The notes under the pieces: model-generated
Databases searched by the model: none
Seen by the model: only the letters and a program-made list of their open reading frames with translations
Told to the model about the DNA's origin: nothing
Sequence record: MZ501090
Reading direction: 5' to 3' (one strand)
DNA from: Escherichia phage KarlJaspers
Length of the DNA: 51,474 bases
Program-made: the position numbers and the translations under genes
In this document: one piece after another, positions 16,041 to 44,292 of the stretch
How positions within the stretch are numbered: position 1 is the stretch's first letter
How the letters are laid out: each line of letters starts with the position of its first letter

Positions 16041-19000
16041 ATGGCTGAAAATATGATAACGGGCAGTAAGGGTGGATCATCAAAACCTTATGTGCCGAAA
16101 GAGATGGAAGATAACCTGATCTCAATCAACAAAATCAAAATCCTTCTTGCCGTTTCCGATGGTGAGTGCGATCCAGATTTCACGCTTCGCGATCTGTATC
16201 TCGATGATGTTCCGGTAATTGCAGATGATGGAACTGTTAACTATCAGGGTGTGAAAGCTGAATTTCGACCCGGAACGCAGACGCAAGATTACATCCAGGG
16301 GTTTACTGACACATCAAGCGAAGTGACGCTGGCGCGTGACATTACGACGACAAATCCTTATGTAATTTCCGTAACCAACAAAACATTATCGGCTATCAGA
16401 ATCAAAATGCTAATGCCAACAGGCATTAAGCAAGAGGATAACGGCGATCTTGTCGGCGTTAAGGTTACTTATGCTGTTGATATGGCTGTTGACGGAGACT
16501 CTTACAAAGAGGTATTGCTAGACACTATCGAAGGTAAAACGCGTTCCGGTTACGACAGAAGCCGGAGGATTGACCTTCCGGCATTTAATGATCGCGTATT
16601 ACTTAGGGTTAGAAGGGTTACGGCAGACAGCACATCTTCTCGTGTTACTGATCTGATTAAACTACAAAGTTACGCTGAGGTTATTGATGCAAAATTCCGT
16701 TATCCTCTGACTGGTCTTGTTTACGTTGAATTTGACAGCGAATTGTTCCCAAATCAGATCCCTAACATTTCAATCAAGAAGAAATGGAAGCTGATTAACG
16801 TTCCGAGTAACTACGATCCTGTTTTGAGAGAGTATCACGGTTCATGGGATGGAACATTCAAAAAAGCATGGTCAAATAATCCAGCATGGGTGCTTTATGA
16901 CATTATCACAAACCAGCGATATGGATTAGATCAGCGAGAGCTTGGTGTGCAGGTTGACAAATGGAGTCTTTACGAAGCGGCGCAATACTGCGATCAGAAA
17001 GTGCCGGACGGAAAAGGCGGCACAGAGCCGCGTTATCTATGCGACGTTGTGATTCAAAGCCAGATTGAGGCTTATCAGCTTATTCGTGATATTTGCTCAA
17101 TCTTCAGAGGCATGAGCTTTTGGAATGGAGAGAGCTTGTCAATCGTCATTGATAAGCCGCGCGATCCGTCGTACATCTTCACAAATGACAATGTTGTTGA
17201 TGGTGATTTTCAGTACACAACAGCAAGTGAAAAGAGCATGTACACGCAGTGCAACGTGACGTTCGATGACGAACAAAACATGTATCAACAGGACGTAGAG
17301 GGTGTATTCGACACAGAGGCCGCATTGCGATTTGGATACAATCCTACAAGCATAACCGCGATCGGATGTACACGCAGGAGTGAGGCTAATCGGCGCGGTC
17401 GATGGATACTAAAAACCAACTTGCGCAGCACTACGGTAAACTTTGCTACTGGACTGGAAGGCATGATCCCATCAATAGGTGATGTGATTGCTATTGCTGA
17501 CAATTTTCACAGCAGCAACCTTAAATTAAACCTATCAGGGCGCGTGATGGAAGTTTCCGGCTTGCAGGTGTTCGTTCCGTTTAAGATTGACGCGCGACCA
17601 GGTGATTTCATTATCATCAACAAGCCGGACGGAAAGCCAGTTAAGCGCACAATCTCAAAAGTAAGCGGTGACGGAAAAACCATTGAACTAAACATTGGGT
17701 TTGGGTTTGAAGTTAAACCTGACACGGTTTTTGCAATCGACCGCACTGATATTGCATTGCAGCAATACGTTGTAACGAGTATCGGCAAAGGTGATGATGA
17801 TGATGAATTTACATACTCCATCACGGCTGTTGAATATGACCCTAACAAATACGACGAGATTGATTATGGAGTAAACATTGACGACAGGCCAACTTCAATT
17901 GTCCAGCCTGACACAATGGCAGCGCCTGAAAATGTGCAAATATCCTCATACTCGCGAATTGTCCAGGGTGCAAGCGTTGAGACAATGGTTGTGTCGTGGG
18001 ATAAAGTACCTTACGCATCGCTGTATGAAATGCAATGGCGAAAAGGTGATGGCAACTGGCTGAATACACCACAGACCGCAAACAAAGAAATTGAGGTTGA
18101 AGGTATTTATTCAGGAAACTACCAGGTAAGGGTTAGATCTGTTTCCGCTTCAGGTTCTACGTCTCCGTGGTCCAGAATTGTGACAGCATCACTGACTGGT
18201 AAGGTAGGAGAGCCAGGCGCGCCAGTTAACTTAACCGCATCCGACAATGAAGTGTTTGGCATTCGTGTTAAGTGGGGGATGCCAGAAGGGAGCGGAGACA
18301 CGGCATACATTGAGCTTCATCAGTCGCCGGATGGAACGGCTGAAAACTCAAGCCTGCTAACGCTGATCCCGTATCCACAATATGAATACTGGCACGGTAC
18401 GCTTCCGGCTGGTCATGTTGTATGGTATCGGATCAGGAGCGTAGACAGGATCGGCAACGTTTCCGGTTGGACTGATTTTGTTAGAGGTATGGCTTCAGAT
18501 GATGTGGAGGCTGTTTTAGGAGATATTCTTGATAAGATTTTTGATACTGAAGCAGGTCAGGATCTTAAAGAGAACGCCATTGACAGTGCAAACAAGATAA
18601 AGGACCAGGCGCAAGCAATCATCCAGAATGCTCTTGCTAATGATGCTGATATTAAGTGGACGCGAGTACAAAATGGAAAGCGAAAGGCTGAATATGGTCA
18701 CGCGCTTGAGCTTATCGCCACAGAGACTGAGGCGCGAGTTACGCAGATTGAAGAATTGAGGGCGTCAATCGACGAGGATATTGTTTCAAGCATAAAGACA
18801 GTGCAGGAGGCTATCGCCACAGAATCTGAAACGCGAGCAACTCAAATAAATGCTTTGGATTCAAAATTCACAACTGAAATTGACGGTGTAAAACGCGATA
18901 CAGCCGCAAGCATTAATCAGGTTAATCAAACCATTGCCAATGAGTCAGAAGCGCGCGCGCAGGCCGTTAACGCGCTTGATGCGAAGTTCACAAAGGAGAT

Positions 19001-32960: not shown

Positions 32961-33018
32961 AGGCGCGAAGGATTGCGCCATAATAACACAAGTTCAACAA
33001 GCAACAGGTAATTAAGAA

Positions 33019-34001: not shown

Positions 34002-34057
34002 GCCCGACCTTGTGTCGGGCATAATTATTTCATCAAAACGAACAAGAGGAAAACAAA

Positions 34058-37184: not shown

Positions 37185-37226
37185 ATTCGTTCCGATGAAA
37201 CAAATATACCCGATACGAGATCGGGA

Positions 37227-40015: not shown

Positions 40016-40070
40016 CGTTTATTTCTCCTTTCGTTCCGGTGAAGTGATTATGCCAGGCTTTTACACCTGG

Positions 40071-40090
40071 CTTTTAACAAAAAGTGCTAT
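40071..40090 (-). promoter_or_regulatory. conserved intergenic motif copy
   Basis: Minus strand ATAGCACTTTTTGTTAAAAG, then GCCAGG...CCTGGC hairpin and ATAATC. Confidence 0.6.
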
Positions 40091-40797
40091 TTTGCGTTTG
40101 CTTCAAAGACGGCGCGAGCAAAACCGCGCGGTGTGAGGGAGCGGATCATCTTTGTGCGAGATGATTTTCCGCCAGTTTTGGCCCAACCAGGATTATCCTT
40201 GTCGTCCTCTTTCGGAAGGATTGTTGCGCGCGGAGGAATAACAAAACCGTTTCCAGTCCAAAGACATGTTTTCTTAAAGTACCGATCCCGCGCCGGAATA
40301 ATATCAGGGAAGTCGGGATGCTTATCATCTTCCGGCAGATAGCCAGCATAATCGCACGGATGGAACGTATAATCAGGCTTGCGCCATAACGTTGACAGCT
40401 TGCCTACAGGATTCTCTATCATGTACGGAACACCGAAATAATCAGCGATATGCGACGCAATTTTGCAAGTGTCGGCGGCCTCATCCTGGAAAGATGGATT
40501 CTCAAGGCGTTTTTTGGCCCAATGGCGAGATCCGCTATTTGCAAGGTCAGTGCATGGAGGGAATGCCATAATAAAATCAGGCTTACCCCAATTTTCAAGT
40601 TTTGCGGTATATTTGAATAGCTCATCAATCCACACATTAACGTAAAAAATATTGTCGTGGATTATGCGCACTGATTGGTAGTCGCCATGATCTGCATCAT
40701 CGTAATTAAAGCAAATGCACTTATATCCAGCGTCGGCCCAATCTTTAACAGCCTTTCCAGATCCATCAAACAAAGAGAAAATTAAACCTTTATACAT
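40087..40797 (-). CDS. C5-cytosine DNA methyltransferase-like protein (compact)
   Basis: Motif I LFDGSG, motif IV FPPCTDLANSG, ENV-like MIENPVG, motif IX-like RSLTPRGFARA; only 236 aa. Confidence 0.5.
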   Translation of the reverse strand: MYKGLIFSLFDGSGKAVKDWADAGYKCICFNYDDADHGDYQSVRIIHDNIFYVNVWIDELFKYTAKLENWGKPDFIMAFPPCTDLANSGSRHWAKKRLENPSFQDEAADTCKIASHIADYFGVPYMIENPVGKLSTLWRKPDYTFHPCDYAGYLPEDDKHPDFPDIIPARDRYFKKTCLWTGNGFVIPPRATILPKEDDKDNPGWAKTGGKSSRTKMIRSLTPRGFARAVFEANAK

Positions 40798-40806
40798 TTC
40801 ATTACC

Positions 40807-41031
40807 TCAAAACGGAAAGCATCTAGGACAGTTCGGATCAAAATTGCAACCACAATCATTAACAATCATAGTTGGATCTGCAAATGCAGCGCCGCATTCA
40901 TGGTTCATATCCATTTCACCCAACGCATCATCAAGCGTCCTGATTTTATATGCGACTTCAAGCGCTGCCTCTTTATTCAGTCCGGCATCTTCTGCTTTTT
41001 GCAGTCGCTCAAAAAAACCGTCTTGACTCAT
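40807..41031 (-). CDS. hypothetical Cys-rich small protein
   Basis: 74 aa with HECG and CGCNFDPNCPRC cysteine cluster. Confidence 0.4.
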   Translation of the reverse strand: MSQDGFFERLQKAEDAGLNKEAALEVAYKIRTLDDALGEMDMNHECGAAFADPTMIVNDCGCNFDPNCPRCFPF

Positions 41032-41937: not shown

Positions 41938-41957
41938 GTTTTAACAAAAAGTGCTAT
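41938..41957 (-). promoter_or_regulatory. conserved intergenic motif copy
   Basis: Minus strand ATAGCACTTTTTGTTAAAAC, then 8-bp CGATGCGC stem with TATATTAT in loop. Confidence 0.6.
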
Positions 41958-42263
41958 TTAGTCCAGGAGTTCGATTTCGCGCTCGCCAGTTAACGGATCT
42001 TTAATCCAGAATCCAAGCGCCTCACCGTAAATACCGCCATAGAATCCAAGCGCCGACAGTTCCTCACCTTTAACAAATACCAGATCACCGCTACGGCTTA
42101 CGTGAGACACGTTAACGATAACCGGAAATGTGCGGTTTTTAAATGCAGGCCGCAGGGCGTAACACCCGTTATTGAGAAAACGTGCTTTGCGCTTAACTGG
42201 AATAGGTGCATTGATTCGCGCCATCTTTATTTCTCCTTCATTGTTGATCGTGTTTAACGGCAA
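41958..42263 (-). CDS. hypothetical protein
   Basis: 101 aa ORF. Confidence 0.4.
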   Translation of the reverse strand: MPLNTINNEGEIKMARINAPIPVKRKARFLNNGCYALRPAFKNRTFPVIVNVSHVSRSGDLVFVKGEELSALGFYGGIYGEALGFWIKDPLTGEREIELLD

Positions 42264-44220: not shown

Positions 44221-44236
44221 CACTTTTTGTTAAAAC
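44217..44236 (+). promoter_or_regulatory. conserved intergenic motif copy
   Basis: ATAGCACTTTTTGTTAAAAC overlapping stop; GCCAGG-tgcaaat-CCTGGC hairpin then ATAATA. Confidence 0.6.
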
Positions 44237-44292
44237 GCCAGGTGCAAATCCTGGCATAATAGCCTCATCGAAACGAGATTGAGGAAAACAAA

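Follow-up and report, generated by a model that had tools for sequence, protein, structure and literature searches.

A compact Dcm-like cytosine-C5 methyltransferase gene in the genome of a Hanrivervirus corresponds to the retron-triggering dcm gene of phage K42

The closest described system is the Dcm protein of K42, a 51.7-kb KarlJaspers (Bas06)-like phage of the Drexlerviridae that was selected for escape from the retron Ec86 (Eco1) (Wang et al., bioRxiv 10.1101/2023.08.16.553469; the reference list of PMC12640716 gives the publication as Cell Rep 2024;43:114857). All four K42 escapers had a 711-bp dcm gene lost or silenced, either by a 2,262-bp deletion, by deletion of G451, or, in two cases, by a C-to-A exchange 9 bp before the start of dcm, and K42 Dcm expressed alone was toxic only in Ec86-carrying cells (bioRxiv 10.1101/2023.08.16.553469). 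The same study reported high levels of 5mC in the msDNA, as detected by LC-MS, with the wild-type enzyme but not with a C82A/E128A/K175A/K176A mutant, a structural overlay placing K175 and K176 in the substrate site, and abolished defence when the CCTGG of the msDNA stem-loop was changed to AATGG, ACTGG, or CATGG; moreover, Dcm was encoded by 34 of the 35 Ec86-sensitive phages (bioRxiv 10.1101/2023.08.16.553469). Later papers take the triggering of Ec86/Eco1 by Dcm as established.

Two further groups of enzymes are relevant for comparison. The bacterial type II C5-methyltransferases (C5-MTases), such as M.HhaI, M.HaeIII, M.MpeI, and E. coli Dcm, comprise 320-472 amino acids and contain motif X, and target-recognition domains of the M.HhaI type span about 80 amino acids or more. 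The catalytic domains of DNMT3A and DNMT3B (PDB 6u8p, 4u7t) consist of about 285 amino acids, retain motif X, form DNMT3L-assisted oligomers, and have CpG as target.

The DNA analysed here, a stretch of 51,474 nucleotides from Escherichia phage KarlJaspers (record MZ501090; referred to as the window), is an essentially complete Hanrivervirus genome (Drexlerviridae, Tempevirinae). Its dcm-like open reading frame is a real gene, which starts with ATG and contains 236 codons in 711 bp including the stop (Table 1). It shares with K42 dcm this length, the numbering of C82, E128, K175, and K176, the G at position 451 of the coding sequence (window position 40347), and a genome-strand C located 9 bp upstream of the start, while the phage family and the genome size are alike as well. 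The correspondence between the two genes is based on length, these landmark positions, and the nucleotide identities of 86-96% to other Tempevirinae dcm genes, a range into which the identity between the window gene and K42 dcm probably falls. Formation of 5mC in DNA was measured by LC-MS for the K42 enzyme and is assigned to the window protein by this landmark correspondence. The base at position -9 of the window gene is a C on the plus strand (40806) and represents a coding-strand G within the GAGG of the Shine-Dalgarno sequence; therefore, the upstream C-to-A change of the escapers is best read as a knock-down of the ribosome-binding site. The finding as such is already known, as the protein of relatives has been annotated and the matching K42 gene has been characterised by experiment, including its role as retron trigger. 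It depends on this gene whether Ec86/Eco1, a retron native to E. coli BL21, stops phages of this type, and retron sensitivity via dcm bears on the choice or engineering of phages.

Table 1. Coordinates of the dcm-like gene, its motifs, and associated features in the window.
Feature	Position	Strand	Remarks
dcm-like gene, very probable DNA C5-cytosine methyltransferase (orphan), 236 aa	40087..40797	-	stop codon 40087-40089
Shine-Dalgarno GAGG, 8-11 nt upstream of dcm ATG	40805..40808	-	from the sequence
Motif I, F10-D-G-S-G14, AdoMet-binding loop following strand 1	40756..40770	-	G12, S13, G14 invariant in family alignment
Motif IV, P80-P81-C82, C82 as catalytic nucleophile	40552..40560	-	P81 and C82 invariant in family alignment
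Motif VI, E128-N129-P130 (ENV-type, Glu contacts flipped cytosine)	40408..40416	-	invariant; at least 90% in distant members
Motif VIII-like, R170-D-R-Y-F-K175-K176-T-C-L-W-T-G182, strand 177-182	40252..40290	-	D171, Y173, K175, W180 invariant
Minimal target-recognition segment, residues 183-218, ~35 aa	40144..40251	-	between motif VIII-like and motif IX
Motif IX-like, R219-S-L-T-P-R-G-F-A-R-A229	40111..40143	-	R219-G225 invariant
Dam-type N6-adenine DNA methyltransferase, 233 aa, second phage MTase	33019..33720	+	PF05869 E=2.3e-60; PADLOC orphan MTase E=5e-103
Promoter-like element over dcm stop codon	40047..40091	-	20-mer AATAGCACTTTTTGTTAAAA precedes an inverted repeat (GCCAGG/CCTGGC) with two CCWGG sites; CATAAT follows
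Nearest upstream 20-mer copy	41939..41958	-	probable start of five-gene unit ending with dcm
20-mer minus-strand copies (20 nt each)	6343, 10104, 20870, 37228, 39396, 40072, 41939, 42816	-	
20-mer plus-strand copies (20 nt each)	30422, 32940, 33981, 44216, 44679, 45668, 46653, 49300	+	

An earlier note on this DNA had described a compact C5-MTase-like protein of 236 amino acids with the motifs FDGSG, PPC, an ENV-like motif, and RSLTPRGFARA, and had proposed a minimal target-recognition domain. All of these motifs are indeed present at residues 10-14, 80-82, 128-130, and 219-229, respectively, and the size of the target-recognition segment bears out the second proposal. Motif I aligns with the motif I region of DNMT3B and shows the consensus FDxTG in distant members of the family, while C82 is kept in at least 90% of these and aligns with the PC motif in both DNMT3B and E. 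coli Dcm. Some of the motifs deviate from the usual patterns: motif VI contains Pro in place of Val (ENP vs. ENV), the canonical QxRxR of motif VIII is absent, with R170, D171, Y173, and K175 being conserved within a consensus RDAYxKKTCLW, and the motif IX-like sequence carries a Gly where a Glu is usual (R.L..RE.AR). No canonical motif X (GN.V) can be recognised at the C-terminus of the 236-residue protein, because it stops 7 residues past motif IX, and N234 is the sole invariant residue in this part; the DNMT3 domains differ in this respect. Across 53 members sharing 30-56% identity, P80, C82, E128, N129, P130, K175, R219, S220, P223, and G225 are conserved in at least 90% of the sequences. 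The most variable part of the alignment is the target-recognition segment, which ends with a conserved GGKSxRTK sequence and in which two or more sequence types (DNPGW, GYSxQ) can be told apart.

The profile search proposed in the earlier note gave a divided picture. The window protein matches the PHROGs family phrog_757 ('DNA methyltransferase') over its full length (residues 2-235, E=6.2e-86), and no difference from the compact phage MTases of this family was found, so it is regarded as a member. In contrast, it stays below the gathering cut-off of Pfam PF00145 (11.1 bits vs. 22, E=0.27), and an NCBIfam search with the protein gave no match; when 47 homologues were taken singly, seven reached PF00145 at E<=0.01, the best one with 1.3e-6. 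Homologues were found by tblastn in 1,502 phage records, which include Drexlerviridae, Klebsiella Webervirus, Dhillonvirus, and rV5-like as well as Certrevirus myoviruses, and also phages of Vibrio, Xanthomonas, and Arthrobacter. A large protein set contained 3,363 homologues, nearly all of 226-260 amino acids, and an exhaustive HMMER scan yielded 1,230 clusters at 50% identity with typical lengths of 200-260 amino acids. Small size is thus shared by the whole family and does not reflect a truncation; the enzyme is one of the smallest C5-MTase scaffolds.

Several single members or records of this set deserve mention. In phage DELF2 (LC516895, Tunavirus), the dcm homologue at 17231-17935 is annotated as two open reading frames (17231-17416 and 17435-17935), a split that could be due to a frameshift or a sequencing error or could mark a pseudogene, and T1 contains no dcm homologue. 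In some metagenomic relatives, the compact MTase domain is part of a larger fusion protein with other modules, being placed at the C-terminal end in three of them (P0212, 453 aa; P0225, 401 aa; P0234, 414 aa), and further fusions are represented by the BFVD relatives A0A6J5SE15 (1397 aa, named 'Helicase/UvrB, N-terminal') and A0A6J5NPY6 (1126 aa). The 'Campylobacter phages' A119, A115a, and A142 (MG065673, MG065678, and MG065662; labelled C. jejuni) either carry a terminase protein about 90% identical to that of this coliphage or rV5-like dcm homologues, and these records are probably coliphage contaminants or mislabelled.

Sequence searches of the PDB, using either the single protein or the family profile, gave marginal matches to DNMT3B (E=0.2-1) around motifs I-IV, and a comparison of folds was therefore needed. 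The predicted structure of the window protein has the three-dimensional fold of DNA C5-MTases of the PF00145 type, scoring 14.2 against DNMT3B, 12.7 against DNMT3A, 12.6 against a DNA C5-carboxymethyltransferase (8yf3), 12.2 against the prophage MTase 3g7u, 11.4 against M.HhaI, and 10.3-11.1 against DNMT1, M.HaeIII, M.MpeI, and Dnmt2, while the sequence identity to the DNMT3A/DNMT3B domains amounts to only 15-17%. In the predicted secondary structure, a strand at residues 5-9 is followed by motif I, a strand at 75-78 by PPC, and ENP is placed on a strand at 125-130; a conserved insert covers residues 146-176, RDxYxKK precedes the strand at 177-182, and the invariant RSLTPRG opens the last helix (224-234). 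The confidence of the model is lowest in the target-recognition segment (pLDDT 64 for the block 201-210). A C5-MTase-fold enzyme moving a group other than methyl, for example a carboxy-SAM-dependent DNA cytosine C5-carboxymethyltransferase catalysing the first step of a hypermodification, is an alternative that we consider very improbable. A Dnmt2-type RNA (tRNA) m5C methyltransferase, or a protein that binds DNA or SAM but is inactive, would be an even more remote explanation, since the methylation of msDNA required the catalytic residues, as indicated by the K42 mutant control, the family as a whole conserves C82 and ENP, and DNA MTases reach higher scores than Dnmt2. We are highly confident that the window gene encodes an active stand-alone AdoMet-dependent DNA cytosine-C5 methyltransferase belonging to the compact phage-borne family of phrog_757.

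According to the established chemistry of C5-MTases, AdoMet should bind at the FDGSG loop and the target cytosine would be flipped out of the DNA; Cys82 would then attack C6, with Glu128 contacting N3/N4, and the methyl group would be transferred to C5, followed by beta-elimination. The DNA would be read by the very short segment of residues ~183-218, probably aided by the conserved insert. No phage partner should be required, because the K42 protein alone is active in E. coli. Together with the phage Dam enzyme, the Dcm-like enzyme would methylate the DNA after replication, and a likely benefit may consist in shielding it from those restriction enzymes which cannot cut DNA methylated in this way. 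The BASEL study found no simple relation of these MTase genes to restriction sensitivity. As shown for K42, a cost would arise when the msDNA stem-loop of Ec86/Eco1 is methylated and abortive infection is set off, which makes the methylation armour provided by dcm and Dam a double-edged one.

An orthology with E. coli Dcm was considered and rejected, because an hhalign comparison with the protein of strain K-12 (472 aa) aligned only 24 columns around motif IV, with a probability of 1%. The term 'Dcm-like' therefore denotes a class of function and not orthology, and specificity cannot be inferred by homology. As further differences from the bacterial type II enzymes, the window protein has neither a cognate restriction enzyme nor a Vsr partner, with no vsr-like gene being present among the scanned open reading frames flanking dcm. 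The CCWGG target of K42 Dcm is an assumption carried over from E. coli Dcm, and the CC mutations of the msDNA were scored for loss of defence (bioRxiv 10.1101/2023.08.16.553469); a search of the literature for mapped 5mC sites of the compact MTase family retrieved annotations only. It is thus conceivable, though we would not favour it, that the true site of an active DNA C5-MTase of this kind is other than C(m5C)WGG, involving the outer C, a shorter or relaxed site overlapping CCTGG, or a preference for hairpins or single-stranded DNA. Both the short target-recognition segment, which is unrelated to that of E. coli Dcm, and its occurrence in at least two sequence types would be consistent with this alternative, as would the observation that MG1655 is dcm+, yet its control msDNA was low in 5mC and Ec86 was not self-activated (bioRxiv 10.1101/2023.08.16.553469). 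If true, a specificity unlike that of E. coli Dcm would explain why Ec86 is fired by the phage enzyme but not by MG1655 Dcm. However, the ACTGG and CATGG variants of the msDNA were both without defence, which fits a site of the CCWGG type. A tentative reading, to which we give a similarly low likelihood, is that the family of ~230-residue proteins forms a distinct minimal class of DNA C5-MTases without motif X and with a target-recognition domain of ~35 amino acids, whose specificity is perhaps unlike that of E. coli Dcm.

The motif counts of the window are also those to be expected with a protected CCWGG site, although host Dcm could explain them equally well. CCWGG occurs in 127 copies vs. 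67 expected from base composition (1.9 times), whereas CCSGG occurs in 2 copies (52 expected from base composition, 12 from a Markov model) and GGWCC in 12 copies (67 expected from base composition). Abundant CCWGG with purged CCSGG and GGWCC fits a protected CCWGG, and the protecting enzyme could equally be the host Dcm. Ten phage genomes were compared for motif counts, and the observed/expected ratios of CCWGG (Markov) ranged from 0.82 to 1.09 in the seven genomes with dcm vs. 0.76-0.86 in the three without it (T1, MK907258, and C119), a difference that points the expected way but is too small and too confounded to carry weight, since host Dcm also protects CCWGG. The scarcity of CCSGG is shared by Warwickvirus brachmannus (3 vs. 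18), but not by T1, Webervirus, or Dhillonvirus genomes, and may reflect a restriction pressure of the CCNGG or CCSGG type on Tempevirinae.

The earlier note had also placed a Dam enzyme beside the C5-MTase, and the Pfam and PADLOC matches confirm this assignment (Table 1). The comparison of GATC with the presence of Dam served as positive control for the motif-count method and had a clear outcome, with observed/expected ratios (Markov) of ~0.8-1.0 in Dam+ relatives vs. 0.27-0.30 in the Dam-less MK907258 and C119. Note that MK907258 (Veterinaerplatzvirus) and phage C119 (KT825490, Rogunavirus), both Drexlerviridae coliphages, contain neither Dam nor a dcm-like gene; GATC occurs 60 times in the former and 56 times in the latter, vs. 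~200 expected.

The 3-kb stretch around dcm is 92-97% identical to the phages damhaus, phiE31-2, pSf-1, egaa, and JakobBernoulli. The annotation of JakobBernoulli (Bas07) names the syntenic gene 'Dcm-like C5 cytosine methyltransferase', while its Dam gene is listed as 'Dam-like N6-adenine methyltransferase'. The dcm-like gene is located in a leftward (minus-strand) block of small hypothetical genes, next to a DUF3987 helicase gene, and no Pfam nuclease domain was found in the scanned open reading frames flanking it, which is why the enzyme is regarded as an orphan. Upstream of dcm, a 74-codon open reading frame (40807-41031, minus strand) ends 9 nt before the dcm ATG; its product, for which Pfam gave no match, is rich in Cys at the C-terminus (HECGAAF...DCGCNFDPNCPRCFPF) and is possibly a small protein that binds zinc. 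With regard to the entire window, 21 of the 64 possible 6-bp palindromes are absent (including GAATTC, AAGCTT, CTGCAG, ATCGAT, and GTCGAC) and 34 occur in at most 4 copies, the median observed/expected ratio being 0.21 for 6-bp palindromes vs. 0.87 for non-palindromic hexamers. This extreme avoidance spares hexamers that contain GATC, GCGC, or CGCG or consist of A and T only, while GGCGCC is present in 1 copy vs. 21 expected (Markov).

A repeated 20-mer that came to light in a BLAST check overlaps the dcm stop codon as part of a promoter-like element. It occurs in 16 copies in the window (at most 3 mismatches) vs. 0.04 expected, and at least 9 copies are present in 15 kb of JakobBernoulli. The copies are mostly intergenic, those flanking the examined genes share the direction of these genes, and the TAG within the 20-mer often represents the stop codon of the upstream gene. 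About 19-20 nt downstream of the 20-mer, a -10-like GG(C/T)ATAAT follows, and then a Shine-Dalgarno sequence and an ATG. Judged by its sequence, the element looks like an UP-element plus a -10 promoter without a -35 region, and, judged by the position of the nearest upstream copy, dcm probably closes a unit of five genes. A scan for promoter and terminator consensus sequences around dcm scored no better than shuffled sequences. The hairpin past the dcm stop codon, with its two CCWGG sites, was considered as a methylation target and set aside, because CCWGG is frequent in the genome and the stems differ in other copies of the element. The spacer forms a perfect inverted repeat of 5-7 bp in about 6 of the 16 elements (32962-32979, 34002-34020, 37208-37226, 40050-40070, 44236-44255), with stems varying by copy (GCCAGG/CCTGGC, GCCCGAC/GTCGGGC, CCCGAT/ATCGGG, GGCGC/GCGCC). 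On the opposite strand, the combination of hairpin and TTTTAACAAAAAG looks similar to an intrinsic terminator.
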